From Escherichia coli (GTDB lineage Bacteria; Pseudomonadota; Gammaproteobacteria; Enterobacterales; Enterobacteriaceae), in NCBI RefSeq assembly GCF_046105845.1, contig NZ_CP151004.1: a stretch of DNA of 64,000 nt, one strand, 5' to 3'. The notes under the pieces are model-generated. The model was given only the letters and a program-made list of their open reading frames with translations. It was not told where the DNA came from and searched no databases. Both the position numbers and the translations under genes were made by a program. Below, one piece after another: positions 6,681 to 44,198 of the stretch (position 1 is its first letter; each line of letters starts with the position of its first letter).

Positions 6681-7580
6681 ATGTCGCGAAAAGATGGGGT
6701 GTTGGCGCTACTGGTAGTGGTCGTATGGGGGCTAAATTTTGTGGTCATCAAAGTGGGGCTTCATAACATGCCACCGCTGATGCTGGCCGGTTTGCGCTTT
6801 ATGCTGGTTGCTTTTCCGGCTATCTTTTTTGTCGCACGACCGAAAGTACCACTGAATTTGCTGCTGGGGTATGGATTAACCATCAGTTTTGCGCAGTTTG
6901 CTTTTCTTTTTTGTGCCATTAACTTCGGTATGCCTGCTGGTCTGGCTTCGTTGGTGTTACAGGCACAGGCGTTTTTTACTATCGTGCTTGGCGCGTTTAC
7001 TTTCGGTGAGCGACTGCATGGCAAACAATTGGCGGGGATCGCCTTAGCGATTTTTGGCGTACTGGTGTTAATCGAAGATAGTCTGAACGGTCAGCATGTG
7101 GCGATGCTCGGCTTTATGTTGACCCTGGCGGCAGCATTTAGTTGGGCGTGTGGCAACATCTTCAATAAAAAGATCATGTCGCACTCAACGCGTCCGGCGG
7201 TGATGTCGCTGGTAATCTGGAGCGCATTAATCCCAATCATTCCCTTCTTTGTTGCCTCGCTGATTCTCGATGGTTCCGCAACCATGATTCACAGTCTGGT
7301 TACTATCGATATGACCACCATCTTGTCTCTGATGTATCTGGCGTTTGTGGCGACAATTGTTGGTTATGGGATCTGGGGGACGTTACTGGGACGCTATGAA
7401 ACCTGGCGGGTTGCACCGTTATCGTTACTGGTGCCCGTAGTAGGACTGGCAAGTGCGGCACTATTGTTGGATGAACGCTTAACGGGTCTACAATTTTTCG
7501 GGGCGGTGCTCATTATGACCGGGCTGTATATCAATGTATTTGGCTTGCGGTGGCGTAAAGCGGTAAAGGTTAGAGGCTAA
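6681..7580 (+). CDS. eamA: Cysteine/O-acetylserine exporter (DMT/EamA family)
   Basis: ORF 6660..7580; conserved start MSRKDGVLALLVVVVWGLNF at 6681 gives 299 aa as in EamA/YdeD. Confidence 0.93.
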   Translation: MSRKDGVLALLVVVVWGLNFVVIKVGLHNMPPLMLAGLRFMLVAFPAIFFVARPKVPLNLLLGYGLTISFAQFAFLFCAINFGMPAGLASLVLQAQAFFTIVLGAFTFGERLHGKQLAGIALAIFGVLVLIEDSLNGQHVAMLGFMLTLAAAFSWACGNIFNKKIMSHSTRPAVMSLVIWSALIPIIPFFVASLILDGSATMIHSLVTIDMTTILSLMYLAFVATIVGYGIWGTLLGRYETWRVAPLSLLVPVVGLASAALLLDERLTGLQFFGAVLIMTGLYINVFGLRWRKAVKVRG

Positions 7581-7629: not shown

Positions 7630-8323
7630 GCGGGAAAAAGTACTTTACCTGGAACTCGAAAATATTGCTGTAAAGTAACGAATAATCCAGCGGAATAGAG
7701 TTACTATCCACAGCCTGGGTCTGAATTTTAAGTATGGGATCCCGTGGGCTGATCCGTAAAATACTGGCGATTTCTGGGGTAGGAAAAGTAGGGGAGAAAG
7801 TTTCAAAGGTGCCAATGATTTTGATCCCGCATTCGTTCTCAATATACGAAAATTTGGATTTTTGCATATGTGCTACGGTTAAATCAGGAAAACGTGCCAC
7901 TGACATCCACGTTTCTTCTAATTGTGCTGCATTATCCTCAATGAATCGCAGTCTCTTTATGTAATAAACCTGCTCACCAGTCACTAAATTCAGCTCAGTC
8001 GCAATAGGGGGAGAAGCATCCTGCACTTCAAATTTCATAATCTGACTTCCTGCCTCCTTGCCGCTTTTATGCGCAATTTCACTGAAGCTGTTCATGTGAT
8101 CAATGTGTGCAACAAAATTCTTTTTTTGAATGTATGTTCCTGAACCATGCTTTCTATGAATAACTCCTTCGCCTTCCAGCAAGGATAATGCCTTACGCAG
8201 GGTATTACGCGAAACATTATAACGAACAGCGAGTTCAGCTTCTGACGGCAACAAATCACCAACATGCCATGAATAGCCATTGATCTCGGATTTAAGTAAG
8301 CGGGCAATCTTTTGAAAAATCAC
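7625..8323 (-). CDS. GntR/HutC-family transcriptional regulator (N-terminal wHTH + UTRA effector domain)
   Basis: 232 aa; the segment LPSEAELAVRYNVSRNTLRKALSLLEGEGVIHRKHGSGTYI is a typical GntR HTH. Divergent from the PTS operon. Absent from K-12 by synteny (from memory). Confidence 0.85.
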   Translation of the reverse strand: MIFQKIARLLKSEINGYSWHVGDLLPSEAELAVRYNVSRNTLRKALSLLEGEGVIHRKHGSGTYIQKKNFVAHIDHMNSFSEIAHKSGKEAGSQIMKFEVQDASPPIATELNLVTGEQVYYIKRLRFIEDNAAQLEETWMSVARFPDLTVAHMQKSKFSYIENECGIKIIGTFETFSPTFPTPEIASILRISPRDPILKIQTQAVDSNSIPLDYSLLYSNIFEFQVKYFFPR

Positions 8324-8947: not shown

Positions 8948-9819
8948 ATGGGATTAATGGCCTCATTCGAACGTGGAATGGAACGTTTTCTTGTTCCAGT
9001 TGCTATCAAGTTAAACTCACAAAAACATGTTGCAGCGGTGAGAGATGGATTCGTTTTTACGTTTCCAATTATTATGGCAAGTTCATTAATTATATTAATT
9101 AATTTTGCCATATTATCGCCAGACGGTTTTATTGCCGGATTACTGCATCTGAATAGCATTTTCCCCAACCTTGAAAAAGCACAAGCTATTTTTACTCCGG
9201 TAATGAATGGTTCTGTAAATATCATGTCAATTATGATTGCTTTCCTGGTCGCCAGGAATATGGCGATTAGCTATGAGCAAGATGATCTTTTATGCGGATT
9301 AACGGCAATAGGAGCATTTTTTATTGTTGGGCCGCTCAACACGGCACTACCTGGGGCGCGCCATATCCGATTACCTGGACTTCTATTAATGATGCATTCG
9401 CCAACTGCGGCGGTTCAGGTATGACGTTGGGGTTATTGTTGGCTATTTTTATCGCTTCTAAGCGTGCGGAATACCGTGATCTGGCAAAAATGTCATTTAT
9501 CCCCGGTATTTTCAATATCAATGAACCGATAATGTTCGGCCTTCCTATTGTACTTAACCCCATCATGATGGTGCCGTTTATTCTGGTTCCCATTGTTAAC
9601 TGTGCCATTGGTTACTTCTTTGTTTCGATGGAAATTATTCCACCGGTTGCTTATGCCGTGCCCTGGACTACGCCCGGACCTTTAATTGCTTTCCTCGGAA
9701 CCGGGGGAAACTGGCTGGCGTTACTGGTGGGTTTTTTATGTTTAGGTGTGGCGACAATGATCTATTTACCTTTTGTTATTGCCGCCAACAAGGTCAATAA
9801 CATGACAACTAACGGATAA
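8948..9819 (+). pseudogene. PTS EIIC component, lactose/cellobiose family, disrupted by an internal deletion with frame change
   Basis: Two overlapping ORFs in different frames (8909..9424 and 9292..9819). The first resembles an EIIC N-terminus (...[29 protein letters not shown]...), the second an EIIC C-terminus (...CGGSGMTLGLLLAIFIASKRAEY...IYLPFVIAANK). Combined coding potential is about 290 aa against ~430-450 aa for this family. Confidence 0.7.
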
Positions 9820-9840
9820 TCCCATTTACACAGGAAGGAG

Positions 9841-10158
9841 ATGTTGATGTTTGCAGATGAAGAACTTGTTATGGAGTTACTGGTCAACGCAGGACAGGCT
9901 CGTTCTGATGCGATGGAAGCCATACGTTGTGCCGGGCAAAAAGACTGGCAGGGCGCAACTCAGCTAATGGCCAGTTCTGAATGCGCCTGTCTTCAGGCGC
10001 ATAAGATTCAGACCGCGTTAATTAGTCAGGATGAAGGCTGTGGCAAAATAGAAGTTAATTTAATTCTGGTTCATGCACAGGATCATTTGATGAATGCAAT
10101 ATTATGCCAGGATTTAGCCAGGGAAATTATTTCATTAAGAAAAGAGCTCCATGCCTGA
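9841..10158 (+). CDS. PTS EIIA component, lactose/cellobiose family
   Basis: 105-aa ORF with helical EIIA-Lac/Cel-like sequence (MELLVNAGQARSDAMEAIRCA...). The start may be the second ATG at 9847, which has better spacing from GGAGG. Confidence 0.85.
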   Translation: MLMFADEELVMELLVNAGQARSDAMEAIRCAGQKDWQGATQLMASSECACLQAHKIQTALISQDEGCGKIEVNLILVHAQDHLMNAILCQDLAREIISLRKELHA

Positions 10159-10210
10159 TTTTTTCCTCCAGTGCGATAGCTGGAGGAAATTATTACACTC
10201 TTAAGGATAA

Positions 10211-13349
<3,139 letters not shown>

Positions 13350-13624: not shown

Positions 13625-13655
13625 GATTGCCTCAGTGACGTTGTCACGTTATCAA

Positions 13656-24920: not shown

Positions 24921-25080
24921 ACTATATTAGTTACAACATCCTATGTGCCTTTATCATTAACGGGTGCCATATGCCACACCTGTAAATGTTGTAAGCTTGT
25001 AGGTAATTTGTAAGTAGTGTCTTGAGAATGTGATCGTAATCACGTTTAATAGGACGACTTTTCCACGCCTGAAGATAACC

Positions 25081-32861: not shown

Positions 32862-33815
32862 ATGACAATCAACGATTCGGCAATTTCAGAACAGGGAATG
32901 TGTGAAGAAGAACAGGTCGCGCGGATCGCGTGGTTTTACTACCACGACGGGCTGACCCAGAGCGAGATCAGCGATCGTCTCGGGCTGACCCGTTTGAAAG
33001 TGTCGCGATTACTGGAGAAAGGGCATCAGTCCGGCATTATTCGCGTGCAGATTAATTCTCGCTTTGAAGGCTGTCTGGAATATGAAACACAATTACGTCG
33101 TCAGTTTTCGCTACAACATTTCCGGGTGATCCCTGGGCTTGCGGATGCTGATGTCGGCGGGCGACTGGGGATAGGCGCGGCGCATATGTTGATGAGTTTA
33201 CTTCAACCACAACAGATGCTGGCGATTGGTTTTGGCGAGGCAACCATGAATACGCTGCAACGCTTAAGTGGTTTTATTTCGTCACAGCAAATTCGCTTGG
33301 TCACGCTCTCCGGTGGCGTCGGTTCTTATATGACGGGTATCGGGCAGCTTAACGCGGCGTGCAGTGTGAATATTATTCCGGCTCCGTTGCGGGCATCCTC
33401 CGCTGACATTGCCCGTACGCTAAAAAATGAAGATTGCGTCAAAGACGTTCTGCTAGCCGCGCAAGCAGCGGATGTGGCGATTGTCGGCATTGGGGCTGTG
33501 AGTCAACAAGACGACGCAACAATCATTCGCTCCGGCTATATCAGCCAGGGCGAACAGTTAATGATTGGTCGAAAAGGGGCGGTTGGCGACATTTTAGGCT
33601 ACTTTTTTGATGCAAAAGGTGACGTTGTCACGGATATTAAAATACATAACGAACTGATTGGCTTACCTTTAAGCGCGCTGAAGACCATTCCCGTCCGGGT
33701 TGGCGTAGCAGGGGGAGAAAATAAAGCCGAAGCCATTGCCGCTGCAATGAAAGGCGGCTATATCAACGCACTGGTTACCGATCAGGACACAGCAGCGGCG
33801 ATTTTACGTAGTTAA
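32862..33815 (+). CDS. lsrR: Transcriptional repressor of the lsr operon (SorC family)
   Basis: 317 aa. Confidence 0.93.
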
Positions 33816-35532: not shown

Positions 35533-36009
35533 GTATTCTTATTTCCCTTCTTTTAGATCTGGTTTGTTAAATGCCAGCTTGCAGATTCATCGTTCCATCG
35601 CCAGTAATATATTCAAGGGGAAATTGCTATTTTTCTTAAAATATTAAGCATAACCCTTATTTTATAGCGAATATTCCTAAAGACATAAATGAATGAAAAA
35701 GAGTTTTAATAGAGTTCTTTTTTAGCAATTAATGCTATTCTTTGTTAAATATGATGATGGTAATTTTCTTATTGAAAGAAACATTTTTCTTATTAAGCAA
35801 CAATAACTCATGGTTCATTTTTAAATAAAATAAGAACTATGCAATTTTTAATCTATCAATTCGAAAGTATTAGCAAATGAGCCAAATTGACACCTTCCCA
35901 CCTCCAACCAACACTCAATACAGACCTCTGACAACTTAATAAGTTTCATTTTTAACGTCTGATGACTCATCTCTTTCGTGGCTGTATTGTTTGTATATGG
36001 AGCGTTTAT

Positions 36010-39000
36010 ATGAATAGAATCTATCGCGTGATATGGAATTGCACCCTACAGGTATTTCAGGCCTGCTCGGAATTAACTCGCAGGGTAGGTAAAACATCAA
36101 CGGTTAATTTGCGTAAATCCTCTGGACTGACAACGAAATTCAGTAGATTGACGCTGGGTGTTTTGCTGGCACTAAGCGGTTCAGCGTCTGGTGCGAGTCT
36201 GGAAGTTGATAATGATCAGATTATCAATATTGATACTGATGTTGCTTATGATGCCTACCTGGTTGGGTGGTATGGCACTGGAGTGCTTAATATTTTGGCT
36301 GGCGGTAATGCCTCCTTAACCACTATTACTACCAGCGTCATTGGTGGTAATGAGAACTCGAAGGGCACCGTTAATGTTTTGGGTGGCACCTGGCGATTGT
36401 ATGATAGCGGAAATAATGCAAGGCCTTTAAATGTGGGCCAATCCGGAACGGGGATGCTGAATATTAAACAGAAGGGGCACGTTGACGGAGGCTATTTAAG
36501 ATTAGGTACTCAAGCTGTAGGCGTCGGGATGGTTAATGTTGAGGGAGAGGACTCGGTTCTGACGACCGAATTATTCGAAATAGGGAGTTACGGTACAGGC
36601 TCATTAAATATTACGGATAAGGGTTACGTCACGAGTTCAATCGTCGCCATTGTAGGATATCAGGCGAACAGCACTGGTAAGGTTGTCGTTGAAAAGGGTG
36701 GCGAGTGGCTAATAAAAAATAATGATTCCTCAATTGAATTTCAAATTGGTAATCAAGGAACTGGGGAGGCGACTATTCGCGAGGGTGGACTGATTACGGC
36801 TGAAAATACGATTATCGGTGGCAATGCCACCGGTATCGGAACCCTGAATGTGCAGGATCAAGACTCTGTCATCACGGTACGCAGAGTCTATAATGGATAT
36901 TTCGGTAATGGCACAGTCAATATTTCCAATAATGGACTGATTAATAATAAAGAATATTCATTGGTGGGCGTTCAGGACGGGTCCCACGGTGTCGTCAACG
37001 TGACCAATAAAGGGCATTGGAATTTCCTCGGAACGGGCGAAGCTTTCCGCTATATCTATATCGGTGATGCTGGCGACGGTGAACTTAATGTCTCTAGTGA
37101 AGGCAAAGTAGATTCGGGAATTATCACTGCGGGGATGAAAGAAACAGGCACAGGCAACATTACTATTAAGGATAAGAACTCCATTATCACTAATCTCGGA
37201 ACTAATCTTGGTTATGACGGCCACGGCGAAATGAATATCAGTAATGAGGGGCTTGTTATCAGCAACGGAGGAAGCTCACTCGGTTATGGAGAAACCGGCG
37301 TCGGGAAGGTTAGCATCACCACGGGGGGGATGTGGGAGGTCAATAAGAATGTCTATACCACCATTGGTGTTGCGGGCGTCGGAAACCTCAATATCAGCGA
37401 TGGCGGTAAGTTCGTATCGCAAAATATTACTTTTTTGGGCGATAAAGCAAGCGGTATCGGCACACTGAACCTGATGGATGCGACATCATCGTTCGATACT
37501 GTAGGTATCAATGTCGGTAATTTTGGTAGCGGCATCGTAAATGTCAGTAATGGTGCCACCCTTAATTCAACGGGCTATGGATTTATCGGAGGAAATGCCT
37601 CCGGTAAGGGGATAGTTAATATTTCAACGGATAGTCTCTGGAATTTAAAAACGTCATCTACTAACGCCCAATTGTTACAGGTCGGTGTATTAGGCACGGG
37701 TGAACTGAATATTAGCACCGGAGGTATAGTTAAAGCGCGTGATACACAAATAGCTCTCAATGACAAAAGTAAGGGCGACGTGCGGGTGGATGGGCAGAAC
37801 TCTCTTCTTGAAACATTCAATATGAACGTAGGGACGACTGGCACAGGTACGTTAACCCTGACGAATAACGGTACGCTGAATGTCGAAGGTGGAGAAGTTT
37901 ACTTAGGTGTTTTTGCGCCTGCTGTAGGAACGCTAAACATTGGTGCTGCTCACGGTGAGGCGGCGGCAGATGCCGGATTTATCACCAATGCGACGAAAGT
38001 GGAGTTTGGTCTTGGCGAAGGCGTTTTTGTCTTTAATCATACCAATAACAGTGATGCCGGCTACCAGGTCGATATGCTGATTACGGGTGACGATAAAGAC
38101 GGAAAAGTGATGCATGATGCAGGCCATACGGTGTTCAATGCAGGGAATACTTATAGCGGTAAAACGTTGGTCAATGGCGGCCTCCTGACCATTGCGTCAC
38201 ATACGGCAGATGGGGTAACGGGCATGGGTTCGAGTGAAGTAACCATTGCAAACCCCGGTACGCTCGACATTCTCGCATCAACGAACAGTGCAGGAGATTA
38301 CACGCTGACCAATGCGCTCAAAGGCGATGGCTTGATGCGAGTGCAGCTGTCATCCTCCGACAAAATGTTTGGCTTTACCCATGCAACAGGAACTGAATTC
38401 GCCGGTGTTGCCCAACTGAAAGACAGTACCTTCACACTGGAACGCGACAACACCGCTGCGCTTACTCACGCGATGCTTCAGTCTGACAGTGAAAATACCA
38501 CATCGGTAAAAGTGGGAGAGCAATCCATTGGTGGACTAGCCATGAATGGCGGTACGCTCACTTTCGATACGGATATACCTGCTGCGACGCTCGCGGAGGG
38601 ATATATCAGCGTCGATACGCTGGTTGTCGGCGCGGGTGACTACACCTGGAAAGGCCGTAACTATCAGGTAAACGGGACGGGCGACGTGCTTATCGACGTG
38701 CCTAAACCGTGGAATGATCCCATGGCGAATAACCCTCTGACGACGCTCAATTTGCTGGAACACGATGATAGTCATGTCGGCGTTCAACTGGTGAAGGCGC
38801 AAACGGTTATTGGGTCGGGTGGCTCATTAACGTTACGTGATTTACAGGGCGACGAGGTGGAAGCGGACAAAACGTTACATATTGCACAAAACGGGACAGT
38901 GGTCGCCGAGGGTGATTATGGATTCCGCCTCACGACCGCTCCTGGTGATGGTTTGTATGTTAACTATGGGCTGAAAGCGCTGAACATCCATGGTGGGCAA

Positions 39001-41430
39001 AAGCTGACGTTAGCCGAACATGGCGGAGCCTATGGCGCAACGGCCGATATGTCGGCAAAAATCGGTGGTGAAGGGGATCTGGCAATCAATACGGTGCGAC
39101 AGGTTTCGCTTTCTAACGGTCAGAACGACTATCAGGGGGCAACCTACGTTCAGATGGGGACATTACGTACCGATGCGGATGGCGCTCTGGGCAATACTCG
39201 GGAACTGAACATCAGCAACGCGGCCATCGTCGATCTTAATGGATCGGAGCAGACGGTAGAGACATTCACCGGGCTGATGGGTTCGACTATTTTGTTCAAA
39301 GAAGGTTCGCTGACGGTGAATAAAGGTGGGATCAGTCAGGGCGAACTGACAGGTGGCGGAAACCTGAATGTTACAGGGGGAACACTGGCTATCGAGGGGC
39401 TTAATGCACGCTACAATGCGTTAACCAGCATTAGCCCAAATGCGGAAGTCAGCCTCGACAATACGCAGGGGTTAGGCAGAGGAAATATTGCCAATGACGG
39501 TCTGTTAACGCTAAAAAACGTGACCGGCAAACTGCGCAATAGCATAAGCGGTAAAGGTATCGTGAGCGCAACCGCCAGCACAGACGTAGAGCTGGATGGC
39601 GATAATAGCCGCTTTGTGGGGCAATTCAACATCGATGCAGGCAGCGCGCTCAGCGTCAACGAGCAGAAAAACCTGGGTGATGCTTCCGTTATCAATAATG
39701 GCCTGCTCACCATCGCCACTGAGCGTAGCTGGGCGATGACGCACAGTATCACCGGTAGCGGCGATGTGACAAAACTGGGGACCGGGATCCTGACTCTTAA
39801 CAACGATTCCGCGGCGTATCAGGGTACGACGGATATCGTGGGTGGTGAAATTGCTTTCGGTTCCGACTCTGCCATTAATATGGCAAGTCAGCACATTAAT
39901 ATCCATAACAGCGGTGTGATGTCGGGAAATGTCACCACTGCAGGTGATGTGAACGTTATGCCAGGGGGGACACTGCGTGTCGCTAAAACCACTGTCGGCG
40001 GTAACCTGGAGAATGGTGGCACGGTTCAAATGAACAGCGAAGGGGGGAAACCGGGGAATGTACTGACCGTTAACGGCAACTATACCGGAAACAATGGCCT
40101 GATGACGTTCAACGCGACGCTGGGTGGCGATAATTCGCCCACGGATAAAATGAACGTGAAAGGCGATACCCAAGGGAATACTCGCGTTCGGGTTGATAAC
40201 ATTGGCGGCGTCGGTGCACAAACGGTCAACGGTATTGAACTCATTGAGGTTGGCGGTAATTCTGCAGGTAAATTCGCGCTGACCACCGGAACTGTCGAAG
40301 CTGGGGCTTACGTCTACACGCTGGCTAAAGGGAAGGGGAATGACGAGAAAAACTGGTATCTGACCAGTAAATGGGACGGCGTAACGCCAGCGGATACACC
40401 CGATCCCATCAATAATCCCCCTGTTGTGGATCCGGAAGGCCCATCAGTTTATCGCCCGGAGGCCGGAAGCTATATCAGCAACATTGCCGCAGCCAACTCG
40501 CTGTTTAGCCATCGCTTACACGACCGTCTGGGTGAGCCGCAGTATACAGATTCACTGCATTCTCAGGGTTCGGCAAGCAGTATGTGGATGCGTCATGTCG
40601 GGGGGCACGAACGTTTCAGGACCGGTGACGGCCAGCTAAATATTCAGGCTAACCGCTATGTATTGCAGCTAGGAGGCGATTTGGCGCAGTGGAGTAGCAA
40701 CGCGCAGGATCGCTGGCATCTCGGCATCATGGCAGGCTATGCCAATCAGCACAGTAATACTCAGAGTAATCATGTGGGTTATAAATCGGATGGGCGCATC
40801 AGCGGTTACAGCGCAGGACTGTACGCGACCTGGTATCAGAACGATGCGAATAAGACCGGCGCTTATGTTGACAGCTGGGCGCTGTATAACTGGTTTGATA
40901 ACAGCGTCAGTTCCGATAACCGTTCTGCTGACGACTATGATTCTCGCGGTGTGACGGCCTCTGTTGAGGGGGGGTATACCTTTGAAGCGGGAACATTTAG
41001 CGGCAGCGAAGGGACGCTGAATACCTGGTACGTCCAGCCACAGGTACAAATCACCTGGATGGGTGTGAAAGATTCTGACCATACCCGGAAAGACGGAACA
41101 CGCATTGAAACGGAAGGCGACGGAAACGTGCAAACGCGACTTGGGGTGAAAACCTACCTGAACAGCCATCACCAGCGTGACGATGGTAAACAGCGTGAGT
41201 TCCAGCCTTACATTGAAGCGAACTGGATCAACAACAGCAAAGTCTACGCCGTGAAGATGAATGGTCAAACCGTAAGCCGTGATGGTGCGCGTAATCTCGG
41301 TGAAGTACGTACCGGGGTTGAGGCGAAAGTAAATAACAACCTTAGCCTGTGGGGGAATGTCGGTGTGCAACTAGGTGATAAAGGCTATAGCGATACTCAG
41401 GGCATGCTGGGAGTGAAATATATCTGGTAA
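36010..41430 (+). CDS. yneO: AIDA-I/Ag43-type autotransporter adhesin with extended signal peptide region, degenerate repetitive passenger and C-terminal beta-barrel translocator; intact
   Basis: ORF 35962..41430. The likely start is the ESPR motif MNRIYRVIWNCTLQVFQACSELTRRV at 36010, followed by a classical signal peptide (LTLGVLLALSGSASGAS). The passenger carries repeated G-x-GTG-x-LNI-type units; the barrel ends ...GMLGVKYIW. Positional orthologue of the K-12 yneO/ydeK pseudogene between lsrK and hipB (from memory). Confidence 0.88.
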   Translation: MNRIYRVIWNCTLQVFQACSELTRRVGKTSTVNLRKSSGLTTKFSRLTLGVLLALSGSASGASLEVDNDQIINIDTDVAYDAYLVGWYGTGVLNILAGGNASLTTITTSVIGGNENSKGTVNVLGGTWRLYDSGNNARPLNVGQSGTGMLNIKQKGHVDGGYLRLGTQAVGVGMVNVEGEDSVLTTELFEIGSYGTGSLNITDKGYVTSSIVAIVGYQANSTGKVVVEKGGEWLIKNNDSSIEFQIGNQGTGEATIREGGLITAENTIIGGNATGIGTLNVQDQDSVITVRRVYNGYFGNGTVNISNNGLINNKEYSLVGVQDGSHGVVNVTNKGHWNFLGTGEAFRYIYIGDAGDGELNVSSEGKVDSGIITAGMKETGTGNITIKDKNSIITNLGTNLGYDGHGEMNISNEGLVISNGGSSLGYGETGVGKVSITTGGMWEVNKNVYTTIGVAGVGNLNISDGGKFVSQNITFLGDKASGIGTLNLMDATSSFDTVGINVGNFGSGIVNVSNGATLNSTGYGFIGGNASGKGIVNISTDSLWNLKTSSTNAQLLQVGVLGTGELNISTGGIVKARDTQIALNDKSKGDVRVDGQNSLLETFNMNVGTTGTGTLTLTNNGTLNVEGGEVYLGVFAPAVGTLNIGAAHGEAAADAGFITNATKVEFGLGEGVFVFNHTNNSDAGYQVDMLITGDDKDGKVMHDAGHTVFNAGNTYSGKTLVNGGLLTIASHTADGVTGMGSSEVTIANPGTLDILASTNSAGDYTLTNALKGDGLMRVQLSSSDKMFGFTHATGTEFAGVAQLKDSTFTLERDNTAALTHAMLQSDSENTTSVKVGEQSIGGLAMNGGTLTFDTDIPAATLAEGYISVDTLVVGAGDYTWKGRNYQVNGTGDVLIDVPKPWNDPMANNPLTTLNLLEHDDSHVGVQLVKAQTVIGSGGSLTLRDLQGDEVEADKTLHIAQNGTVVAEGDYGFRLTTAPGDGLYVNYGLKALNIHGGQKLTLAEHGGAYGATADMSAKIGGEGDLAINTVRQVSLSNGQNDYQGATYVQMGTLRTDADGALGNTRELNISNAAIVDLNGSEQTVETFTGLMGSTILFKEGSLTVNKGGISQGELTGGGNLNVTGGTLAIEGLNARYNALTSISPNAEVSLDNTQGLGRGNIANDGLLTLKNVTGKLRNSISGKGIVSATASTDVELDGDNSRFVGQFNIDAGSALSVNEQKNLGDASVINNGLLTIATERSWAMTHSITGSGDVTKLGTGILTLNNDSAAYQGTTDIVGGEIAFGSDSAINMASQHINIHNSGVMSGNVTTAGDVNVMPGGTLRVAKTTVGGNLENGGTVQMNSEGGKPGNVLTVNGNYTGNNGLMTFNATLGGDNSPTDKMNVKGDTQGNTRVRVDNIGGVGAQTVNGIELIEVGGNSAGKFALTTGTVEAGAYVYTLAKGKGNDEKNWYLTSKWDGVTPADTPDPINNPPVVDPEGPSVYRPEAGSYISNIAAANSLFSHRLHDRLGEPQYTDSLHSQGSASSMWMRHVGGHERFRTGDGQLNIQANRYVLQLGGDLAQWSSNAQDRWHLGIMAGYANQHSNTQSNHVGYKSDGRISGYSAGLYATWYQNDANKTGAYVDSWALYNWFDNSVSSDNRSADDYDSRGVTASVEGGYTFEAGTFSGSEGTLNTWYVQPQVQITWMGVKDSDHTRKDGTRIETEGDGNVQTRLGVKTYLNSHHQRDDGKQREFQPYIEANWINNSKVYAVKMNGQTVSRDGARNLGEVRTGVEAKVNNNLSLWGNVGVQLGDKGYSDTQGMLGVKYIW

Positions 41431-41908: not shown

Positions 41909-43230
41909 TGCCTAAACTTGTCACTTGGATGAACAACCAGCGGGTAGGCGAGTTAACGAAGTTAGCCAATGGCGCGCACACCTTTAAGTATGCACCGGAG
42001 TGGTTAGCTAACCGTTATGCCAGACCGTTGTCACTTTCGCTGCCATTGCAGAGGGGGAATATCACCTCTGATGCCGTATTTAACTTCTTCGATAACCTGT
42101 TACCCGATAGCCCGATTGTACGTGACCGGATCGTTAAACGTTATCATGCCAAATCCAGACAACCGTTTGATTTATTGTCAGAAATAGGGCGAGACAGCGT
42201 TGGTGCCGTGACGTTAATACCCGAAGACGAAACCGTAACGCATCCGATAATGGCATGGGAAAAGCTTACTGAAGCCAGACTTGAAGAAGTATTAACGGCT
42301 TATAAAGCAGATATCCCTCTGGGCATGATTAGAGAAGAAAATGACTTTCGCATCTCGGTTGCTGGCGCGCAGGAGAAGACAGCGCTGCTCAGAATAGGCA
42401 ATGACTGGTGCATTCCGAAAGGAATAACGCCGACGACGCACATCATTAAATTACCGATTGGCGAAATCAGGCAGCCCAATGCGACGCTCGATCTCAGCCA
42501 AAGCGTTGATAATGAGTATTACTGTCTGCTGCTGGCGAAAGAACTTGGGTTGAATGTTCCGGACGCAGAAATCATTAAAGCGGGAAGGGTGCGCGCGTTA
42601 GCGGTCGAACGTTTTGACAGGCGTTGGAATGCTGAGCGAACGGTTTTACTTCGCTTGCCACAGGAGGATATGTGTCAGACATTCGGTTTACCTTTATCGG
42701 TGAAATATGAATCAGATGGAGGCCCAGGCATCGCGCGGATCATGGCTTTTTTGATGGGGTCCAGCGAGGCGCTGAAAGATCGCTATGATTTTATGAAGTT
42801 TCAGGTGTTCCAGTGGTTGATTGGCGCAACGGATGGCCATGCAAAAAACTTCTCCGTATTTATTCAGGCTGGCGGCAGTTATCGACTCACGCCATTTTAC
42901 GACATCATTTCAGCATTTCCGGTATTGGGTGGCGCAGGAATACACATCAGCGATCTCAAACTGGCAATGGGGCTTAACGCATCCAAAGGCAAAAAAACGG
43001 CAATCGATAAAATTTATCCGCGACATTTTCTGGCGACAGCAAAGGTGCTGAAATTTCCGGAAGTGCAGATGCATGAAATCCTGAGTGACTTTGCCAGAAT
43101 GATTCCGGCAGCACTGGATAACGTGAAGACTTCATTACCGACAGATTTTCCGGAGAACGTGGTGACGGCAGTTGAAACAAATGTGTTGAGGTTGCACCGT
43201 CGGTTAAGCCGAGAATACGGTATTAAGTAA
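41908..43230 (+). CDS. hipA: Serine/threonine kinase toxin HipA
   Basis: ORF 41851..43230; conserved start MPKLVTWMNNQRVGELTKLANG at 41908 (440 aa), overlapping the hipB stop by 1 nt. Gly22 is wild-type; the autophosphorylation-site context RISVAGAQEKTAL is present. Confidence 0.93.
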   Translation: MPKLVTWMNNQRVGELTKLANGAHTFKYAPEWLANRYARPLSLSLPLQRGNITSDAVFNFFDNLLPDSPIVRDRIVKRYHAKSRQPFDLLSEIGRDSVGAVTLIPEDETVTHPIMAWEKLTEARLEEVLTAYKADIPLGMIREENDFRISVAGAQEKTALLRIGNDWCIPKGITPTTHIIKLPIGEIRQPNATLDLSQSVDNEYYCLLLAKELGLNVPDAEIIKAGRVRALAVERFDRRWNAERTVLLRLPQEDMCQTFGLPLSVKYESDGGPGIARIMAFLMGSSEALKDRYDFMKFQVFQWLIGATDGHAKNFSVFIQAGGSYRLTPFYDIISAFPVLGGAGIHISDLKLAMGLNASKGKKTAIDKIYPRHFLATAKVLKFPEVQMHEILSDFARMIPAALDNVKTSLPTDFPENVVTAVETNVLRLHRRLSREYGIK

Positions 43231-43510
43231 GATATGGGGTTTGGCTGTTGTTAATGAGCAGGACAATCATGACCGCCAACGACTGGATTCTCCCTTGGTT
43301 TATGTTGGTGCGCATAATGTATATTATGTTAAATTGAATTTGAGTGATACGAAGCGATTTTCCGGTCGTCGTTATTACTTCAGGGTTCCAGAACATAAAG
43401 CCTCTCCTCTTTCATAATTGGCCTGTGCATACCGGATATAGGCTGGCTGGTATGCAGGTTTGCCGTTTGCCGCATCTTCCCTGCGTTGAAGAGTCAGGCT
43501 GGCAAACCGC

Positions 43511-43765
43511 GTGCAAATGAACACCCCCTCTTTCCATCAACACTTCAGACAGCTTGCGGGAATGAGTCCACTCCGGTATCAGAAATGGCTACGCCTCAAT
43601 GAAGCCAGGCGACTGATGCTGAATGAACATTACGATGTCACCACTGCAGCCTATGCTGTCGGTTACGAAAGCTTATCCCATTTCAGTCGGGAATATTCGC
43701 GGATGTTTGGAGAGTCACCTAAGAGAGATATTACCGGGTTAAGAAAGTCTGTCGGTCAGCTTTAA
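43511..43765 (+). pseudogene. yneL: AraC-family regulator remnant (C-terminal HTH domain only)
   Basis: 84-aa ORF HFRQLAGMSPLRYQKWLRLNEARRLMLNEHYDVTTAAYAVGYESLSHFSREYSRMFGESP is the second AraC HTH; no N-terminal effector domain ORF upstream. Confidence 0.55.
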
Positions 43766-44198
43766 TAAACCCTGCACTTATCTGTTTAGAGCAATTCCGT
43801 GTTAGTTACACCAGTCAAACATTAACCATAGCTAATGTTTTATAGCCATATAAACCATTGGCCGCTCTTGACCTTTCCTGACACTTCCCTTGTTCGCAAT
43901 AATATTCTGTTTAGTCGCTGTTTATAAATAACATGCATAATGAAATCGTAATGTTATTTAGCGACATAAAATGTCTTTGCAAATACTCTCTACAACAAGT
44001 GCTGCAATAAACTTGTTGTGATTAGGTGTCCTTGTAATTTAAAGATATTATCGTTCTTCGTGAAATGTAATAACCCTGGAAACTATATTCTCAGGGCAAT
44101 ATCCCATCAAGAATGATTCTTGTTTTATAAGCAATAACAGAATTACTTAATTGTTAACTTTCTTTATTCAGCTACTTAAATATAAATTTTGGAGAATT

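Follow-up and report, generated by a model that had tools for sequence, protein, structure and literature searches.

In the E. coli genome examined here, a short open reading frame (ORF) related to the DNA-binding domain of AraC-type regulators lies between hipA and the F9 fimbrial operon. This arrangement raises the question of whether the ORF is a small regulator in its own right or the remnant of a larger gene and, in the latter case, which gene was lost and by what route. The question was addressed in a 64,000-nucleotide stretch of this genome (contig NZ_CP151004.1), referred to here as the window. The upstream neighbor hipA ends at position 43230, and the downstream neighbor is the major-subunit gene of a complete type 1-like F9 (fml/yde) fimbrial operon, which starts near 44190, about 420 bp downstream of the stub and on the same strand. 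Two nested features were assigned to the AraC-related segment:

43499-43765, plus strand: remnant of an AraC_N-family regulator (yneL locus), codons 217-304 and the stop codon (tblastn, blastn)
43511-43765, plus strand: GTG-started ORF of 84 codons inside the remnant (ORF list, Pfam HTH_18)

The AraC-family remnant at the yneL locus

When a 304-residue intact ortholog was used as a tblastn query, residues 217-304 alone were recovered at this locus (43499-43762, 90% identity, E = 7e-49), and no match to the N-terminal part (residues 1-216) was detected across the 64-kb window. The only further matches of this query in the window were marA and one other AraC-family HTH gene. At the nucleotide level the remnant was 88% identical to positions 7649-7917 of an Enterobacter vonholyi contig (L011). 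The ORF matched Pfam HTH_18 strongly (E = 3.9e-22, profile positions 6-76 of 80) and was found to contain a single HTH_AraC match, corresponding to the second repeat only. Representative proteins collected by an exhaustive HMMER search placed the stub at about residues 218-301 of proteins of 300-320 residues; in addition, two database proteins of 128 residues were 90-91% identical to the stub and reached further toward the N-terminus. The first-pass annotation had described the segment as encoding only the C-terminal HTH half of a regulator. The C-terminal origin and the presence of an ORF were borne out, but "half" was too generous, as the stub represents 88 of 304 residues (the last 29%) and the DNA-binding domain itself is incomplete. 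Solved AraC-family DNA-binding domains align from ortholog residues 196-201, and the stub begins at residue 217 (220 if counted from the GTG); it is thus without the whole sensing domain and without about 20-24 residues of the roughly 100-residue DNA-binding domain. Of the domains expected of a functional AraC/XylS-family member, neither the N-terminal sensing/dimerization domain (AraC_N, PF06719) nor a complete two-HTH domain of about 100 residues is present; the homology covers only residues 217-304 of a gene that relatives carry intact, and the rest is missing. The reading frame of the stub is open only from 43490 and is preceded by a TGA at 43487-43489; therefore, the stub cannot be extended by any alternative start, and the full-length ORF that would have overturned the original reading is excluded. 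At the same spot in other E. coli, PGAP annotates a pseudogene "missing N-terminus", and yneL has been listed as a pseudogene (PMC9308461). Together, these results make it very probable that 43499-43765 is the already known yneL pseudogene, consisting of the last 88 codons of an AraC_N/HTH_18 regulator of about 304 residues.

Intact relatives were used to reconstruct what is missing. The protein homologue search yielded almost only short fragments, and full-length relatives were obtained from contig neighborhoods, the representative-protein search, and a genome scan. In the scan of 100,044 species genomes, intact 304-residue orthologs were identified in four genomes: Enterobacter mori, E. vonholyi, Enterobacter sp. 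MGH 24, and Klebsiella michiganensis. Comparison with such strains, which the first-pass annotation had proposed as a check, confirmed that the remainder of the gene is missing from the window. The intact orthologs carry AraC_N at residues 31-182 and HTH_18 at residues 217-292, with the first HTH_AraC match at residues 204-244; we take YqhC to share this AraC_N plus HTH_18 architecture. On an Enterobacter-like contig (L008), the 304-codon regulator gene is interrupted by one stop codon. In Enterobacter and Klebsiella the intact regulator gene lies a few kilobases to the right of dif and is divergent from a cluster of genes encoding an alpha/beta-hydrolase, with or without an Fe-alcohol dehydrogenase (ADH), and a DUF2255 protein. 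Thus, the lost partners of the window stub are this divergently transcribed hydrolase/Fe-ADH/DUF2255 cluster and not fimbrial genes.

A second, intact copy of the regulator gene was detected in about 95 E. coli genomes, always in the argW/intS island and never at dif. In E. coli WP2-S18-ESBL-07, for example, an intact 304-residue regulator, a hydrolase, and a truncated Fe-ADH are encoded at 9038-12482 of the contig (L016), next to intS and tRNA-Arg. This argW-island regulator is a horizontally acquired second copy. Because the module is 87-98% identical at the nucleotide level between E. coli and Enterobacter/Klebsiella, and because of the argW-island copy, the sequence comparisons suggest that the module moves horizontally and that its history need not be purely vertical.

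dif and the gene relics beside it

The 280 bp upstream of the ORF had been described as having no ORF for a matching N-terminal domain. The tblastn search agrees that this domain is absent, but the stretch is not featureless, as it contains dif and relics of two genes. The features of the interval and the terminus signals of the window were as follows:

43231-43306, no strand: spacer from the hipA stop codon to dif, the left flank of dif, kept in other E. coli
43307-43334, plus strand: dif, the XerC/XerD dimer-resolution site (GGTGCGCATAA-TGTATA-TTATGTTAAAT), 28/28 identity
43345-43415, minus strand: 5′-end relic of a DUF2255 gene, about 22 codons with an internal gap (blastn, translation)
43437-43496, minus strand: internal relic, 60 bp, of an alpha/beta-hydrolase gene (DLH/Peptidase_S9-like; blastn)
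43440-43447 and 43496-43503, plus strand: 8-bp direct repeats AGGCTGGC around the hydrolase relic (repeat search)
43766-43785, no strand: right boundary of the variable segment, where homology ends
13266, 28375, 40330, and 42582, plus strand: KOPS GGGNAGGG
49961, 58270, and 59394, minus strand: KOPS GGGNAGGG
24928-24941, minus strand: Ter replication-terminator consensus GGATGTTGTAACTA, about 18 kb from dif
13635-13647 and 33619-33631: exact matches to the matS consensus GTGACGTTGTCAC, with 0 expected by chance

Positions 43307-43334 (GGTGCGCATAATGTATATTATGTTAAAT) match all 28 bases of the E. coli dif, including the XerC arm, 6-bp center, and XerD arm. This site, overlooked on first pass, is present in a single copy within the window and is positioned 77 bp past the hipA stop codon and 164 bp before the stub. 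Its identity is supported by the surrounding polarity: the KOPS are on the plus strand at 4/4 sites to the left and on the minus strand at 3/3 sites to the right, so that 7/7 point toward dif and their polarity switches there as in a terminus. The KOPS polarity was decisive, and the GC skew over the 64-kb window was suggestive only and not decisive alone. The Ter match at 24928-24941 is, judging by its position, probably TerC, and the matS sites correspond to the MatP-binding motif of the Ter macrodomain. The reference dif sequence has been confirmed experimentally (PMC3025954), dif has been placed in the yneL-hipA intergenic region of K-12 in a 2025 preprint (bioRxiv 10.1101/2025.09.02.673814), and both reports establish that the identical K-12 site is active. 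Since the interval contains dif, what the original reading called a "rearrangement" is erosion on the right side of the replication terminus.

On the other side, the spacer aligns to the corresponding contig of strain ETEC4068 (L017) through the end of dif, and a stretch of about 40 bp immediately to the left of dif (43270-43306; ATGACC.C.AA...GATT.C.CCT...TT.AT) looks partly conserved between E. coli and Enterobacter (L011 and L013) despite different flanking genes; this conservation could reflect a dif accessory function or a flank constraint. The E. coli dif, together with a K-12-type yneL stub, was also encountered at 6766-7206 of a contig labeled 'Candidatus Nanosynbacter' (L015), which is almost certainly an E. 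coli contaminant in that metagenomic bin.

To the right of dif, the DUF2255 relic begins with a start codon at 43413-43415 on the minus strand and aligns to the intact gene of L007/L011 by blastn at 91% over 46 bp and 89% over 27 bp, with the peptide FMFWNPEVIT corresponding to FMFWNYEVLT in L011; the intact L011 gene matches Pfam DUF2255 at E = 9.5e-40. The hydrolase relic is 93% identical over 60 bp to positions 4298-4357 of L007 (E = 6e-21) and 87-95% identical to L010, L011, L013, and L008, and maps within the hydrolase ORF of L011 (4494-5567, minus strand). In the intact loci the order is dif, a flavodoxin-like gene in some cases, DUF2255 (minus), hydrolase (minus), sometimes Fe-ADH (minus), and AraC (plus). 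As the window relics retain the order and orientation of L007, L008, and L011, at least three internal deletions must have shrunk several kilobases to 430 bp. The 8-bp repeats mark a further decay step: a protein variant represented on 87 contigs (P0003) reads ...GYRLANRVQM, which is the product of deleting the 56-bp segment between the repeats. On the right, homology to Enterobacter stops at the stub stop codon plus a few bases, and the upstream region of the F9 operon from 43786 onward is common to strains without the stub, with the alignment to the window beginning at 43786 in Nissle 1917 and at 43801 in MNCRE44. A lenient DNA alignment had seemed to extend AraC coding upstream to about 43420 in a shifted frame (a 'VEELA' reading after removal of 5 bp). 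This candidate was rejected, as under stricter scoring the 267 bp scored no better than shuffled sequences and the stretch is explained by the 93%-identical hydrolase relic.

Lineage versions of the right flank of dif

Complete E. coli genomes (5,426) were searched twice, and no intact allele was detected at the dif/yneL locus. Some part of the stub or segment was kept in 4,322 of the 5,426, including 1,191 with a segment of the window-type length, and the alleles at the locus cover at most about 12% of the ancestral 2.8-kb hydrolase-AraC block. Other Escherichia species were not among the matches of the genome scan, and no Escherichia genome with an intact locus was found. The sequence between dif and F9 was found to differ between lineages as follows:

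Window type: DUF2255 relic, hydrolase relic (equivalent to L011 4907-4961), and stub from codon 217
ETEC4068: 7.75-kb island, followed by the relics and stub of the window type
K-12: DUF2255 relic, a different relic (L011 4395-4476), and a frameshifted stub from codon 236; first F9 genes lost
B2 (Nissle 1917): other gene fragments, an adjacent hydrolase piece (L008 4447-4544), and no stub
MNCRE44: other sequence, with none of it annotated, and no stub

The ETEC4068 island (L017 30081-37834) carries genes for a LysR regulator, an amidotransferase, aldo/keto reductases, an amidohydrolase, an NAD(P)H oxidoreductase, an ABM monooxygenase, and a CMD-family protein. The island is collinear with Enterobacter L008 at 93-98% identity and leads directly into the relics. 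Alignment of the window to ETEC4068 extends through the final base of dif and resumes at a copy of GTTAAAT 7.75 kb further on. These junctions indicate that the window lineage lost the island by deletion between two 7-bp GTTAAAT microhomologies, the first of them forming the outer end of the XerD arm. The K-12 and window alleles represent separate routes: K-12 retains L011 4395-4476 and a stub from codon 236, the window retains L011 4907-4961 and codons 217-235, and neither can be derived from the other because each keeps sequence that the other lost. The stub of K-12 yneL is thus not that of the window: it is shorter and carries a frameshift. Elsewhere in this region, hipA is split by ISEc23 in ETEC4068, and an intact ORF of 1,822 codons for an ECSE_1600-family autotransporter lies upstream of hipBA in the window (35962-41430), the same gene being frameshifted in K-12 and ETEC4068. 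In K-12 BW25113 (L003 2830-2935), an inverted repeat (GCAGTGTCT...AGACACTGC) is present in a DUF2255-hydrolase intergenic relic that is missing from the window.

Truncations were also found outside E. coli. In K. pneumoniae ATCC 13883 (L014 6555-7258), an independent and clean 5.28-kb deletion with a 3-bp microhomology left dif, 430 bp, and the regulator from about codon 223. The whole block is retained in further Klebsiella-like assemblies, with P0006 being named as K. pneumoniae by one source. A database protein (P0121) breaks at about residue 188. On the E. vonholyi contig (L011 9757-9863), a 107-bp, 87%-identical old relic of the regulator 3′ end lies 1.8 kb past the intact gene and is followed by conserved flank; an old stub beside an intact copy points to replacement of the module. 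Detection of truncated forms was biased toward fragments that retain the conserved HTH. A deletion hotspot within about 60 bp of the gene was considered and rejected, as the breakpoints (residues ~188, 217, 223, 236, and 269) are too scattered.

Overall, the claim of an old deletion or rearrangement between the hipBA and fimbrial loci is supported by the PGAP annotation, the intact orthologs, and the lack of an intact allele at the locus among the 5,426 E. coli genomes, with the correction that it was not a single event. At least three separate deletions made the window version, other lineages carry different ones, and the locus as a whole records several independent, nested deletions in E. 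coli lineages (window type, K-12, B2, and ETEC4068), K. pneumoniae, and E. vonholyi.

Function, history, and comparison with known systems

The selective constraint on the stub was compared with that on its intact relatives. Over the 88 codons, dN/dS was 0.3-0.9 among six E. coli stubs versus 0.04-0.17 among five intact orthologs; the stub values rest on few substitutions, with counts of nonsynonymous to synonymous changes such as 2:0, 3:0, and 7:5. Replacements occur in the stubs at residues invariant in the intact orthologs (Q244R, R248S, A252V, L255T, and S279R/C), and disabling changes are present in the population: a stop codon in one allele (L297*), a frameshift in K-12, alleles that are shorter or missing altogether, and the variant with the 56-bp deletion between the repeats. 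Though the substitution counts are small, this pattern of relaxed constraint and disabling mutations is that of a pseudogene and is consistent with stub alleles evolving under relaxed constraint. A consensus scan of 43200-43510 revealed no sigma-70-like promoter, and inspection of the sequence before the stub GTG revealed no Shine-Dalgarno-like sequence, each of which is weak evidence; similarly, no meaningful terminator pattern or Rfam family was found at the stub. In O157:H7 Sakai, an ECs2114 promoter fusion gave 100-230 units versus >8,000 for fmlA, i.e., minimal expression (PMC7766294), and deletion of yneL had no phenotype in a cSDR-dependent growth assay in which deletion of dif abolished growth (bioRxiv 10.1101/2025.09.02.673814). 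Counter to these findings, the ORF is still open in many alleles, the stub persists in most of the complete genomes, and dN/dS within E. coli is below 1, albeit on few substitutions. Nonetheless, we are confident that the stub is non-functional, because no promoter or ribosome-binding site is recognizable, its first helix-turn-helix is incomplete, and its evolution is consistent with relaxed constraint.

These data also bear on the proposal that the stub is a stand-alone mini-regulator of the F9 operon, similar to MarA or SoxS. Its position just upstream of the F9 major-subunit gene on the same strand, the open ORF, and the strong HTH_18 match make the proposal understandable; it was put forward for the 'putative regulator ECs2114/Z2199' (PMC7766294), and a 2022 survey reported a microarray signal for yneL (PMC9308461). 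Against it, the reporter activity was minimal, and some 21-24 residues of the DNA-binding domain are missing, including the start of the first HTH. The stop-codon allele and the replacements at invariant residues do not fit a working regulator, the ancestral partners were the hydrolase/ADH/DUF2255 cluster rather than fimbriae, B2 strains have F9 without the stub, and K-12-type alleles are shorter and frameshifted. We therefore regard a role as F9 regulator as extremely improbable and retain the reading of a dead remnant.

The history of the remnant was reconstructed from the relics. Because complementary relics occur in different lineages, the E. coli ancestor probably carried the hydrolase/AraC block between dif and the F9 operon, a state that is reconstructed and not observed. 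The regulator presumably controlled the divergent hydrolase/ADH/DUF2255 genes, given the conserved divergent arrangement. A series of deletions, some small and some large, would then have taken away the sensing domain and the first ~20 residues of the DNA-binding domain along with the target genes; in the window strain, dif would have remained together with relics of the DUF2255 gene (70 bp) and of the hydrolase gene (60 bp) and the stub of the regulator. In the order of events that we infer, the last step would be the 7.75-kb deletion from the outer edge of dif at the 7-bp GTTAAAT, removing the oxidoreductase island that is still present in ETEC4068. Proximity to dif may itself favor erosion, because the terminus breaks at division and only deletions that spare dif would persist; division-associated double-strand breaks have been described for the terminus around dif (PMC5638614). 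More broadly, and only tentatively, the right flank of dif in Enterobacteriaceae might be a zone of recurrent erosion and replacement, in which a transferable hydrolase/ADH/AraC module is repeatedly acquired and whittled down by independent, dif-sparing deletions that leave 3′ stubs. If this were true and driven by division-linked breakage or by Xer/FtsK activity at dif, these relics would be a natural-history footprint of terminus instability.

Two other routes to the same relics were weighed. In one, Xer recombination, as dif-exploiting elements (IMEX) integrate and excise, would have made the deletions and replacements in place of illegitimate or homologous recombination of the ordinary kind. 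In favor of this route, one deletion endpoint falls at the exact outer edge of the XerD arm, the content to the right of dif varies between E. coli lineages and between genera, and dif-like sites are found on many plasmids. Yet dif and the right end of the ETEC4068 island have only the 7 bp GTTAAAT in common, and a search of the 39.5-kb ETEC4068 locus at ≤6 mismatches detected no further dif-like site, which leaves the locus without the two sites that define an IMEX. The genes of the island moreover follow the order seen in Enterobacter, and the island leads on into the relics, so that it looks ancestral and not inserted, and the other junctions lie far from dif with microhomologies of 0-3 bp. 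Xer-mediated origins are thus very unlikely. A somewhat better case, though still an unlikely one, can be made for the stub being kept as a homology anchor, with incoming Enterobacteriaceae DNA repeatedly replacing the dif-proximal segment through crossovers near the conserved 3′ end and leaving old stubs behind. The E. vonholyi arrangement, with its intact copy, 87%-identical 107-bp stub, and then conserved downstream flank, speaks for such replacement, as do the high identity of the island and module between E. coli and Enterobacter/Klebsiella, the same module in the argW/intS island, and the occurrence of truncations retaining the 3′ end in E. coli, in K. pneumoniae, in E. vonholyi, and in the source of P0121. 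Against an anchor, the scattered breakpoints form no sharp hotspot, the junctions are bordered on the left by relics of neighboring genes, as simple internal deletions would give, and the retention of 3′ ends is subject to the detection bias toward fragments with the conserved HTH. Independent internal deletions remain the reading that we prefer.

The object itself is already known and is an ordinary decayed gene; the useful corrections are dif, the relics, the stepwise decay, and that it is not an F9 regulator, and only the pattern of erosion and replacement at the dif flank is mildly novel. In practical terms, the interval should be annotated as dif plus a pseudogene rather than as an "empty" spacer and a possible regulator, and the reconstructed hydrolase/ADH/DUF2255 ancestry, in arguing against the F9-regulator proposal (PMC7766294), spares experimental effort. 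Deletions of yneL must be designed to spare dif, 164 bp away, which has a phenotype (bioRxiv 10.1101/2025.09.02.673814). The lineage-specific relic patterns can also serve as a compact marker of E. coli phylogroups, and the locus offers a small natural example of dif-adjacent sequence decaying with dif preserved.

When compared with known systems, the stub is closest to the AraC_N (PF06719) plus HTH_18 regulators of Enterobacter and Klebsiella (L010-L013) and to WP_000622442.1 of the E. coli argW island, to which it is 88-90% identical over their last 88 residues; like the stub, the intact regulators of L011, L013, and L005-L007 are located to the right of dif. Unlike the stub, the intact Enterobacter/Klebsiella regulators have 304 residues, a sensing domain, a full two-HTH domain, and a divergent hydrolase/ADH neighbor, and they are under purifying selection. 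All that the stub shares with stand-alone proteins of the MarA/SoxS type is that it is small and matches the AraC HTH region: MarA aligns from ortholog residue 197, and the stub starts 20-23 residues later, so that it is without the first helix and most of the second. The yneL gene of K-12 (b1506) and ECs2114/Z2199 of O157:H7 are found at the same locus, between dif/hipA and F9, derive from the same ancestral gene, and are annotated as an HTH protein "missing N-terminus". K-12 yneL differs from the window allele in that it starts at codon 236 and not 217, is frameshifted and not in frame, follows a different upstream relic, and adjoins an F9 operon that has lost its first genes. The O157 allele is of the window type, 93.5% identical over the 436-bp segment from dif to the stub, with extra replacements in the stub. 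Finally, the E. coli dif/XerCD-FtsK system appears to be represented in the window without any detectable difference at the sequence level, by an exact 28-bp dif, converging KOPS, and nearby Ter and matS sites, with dif being a neighbor of the stub and not part of its gene.
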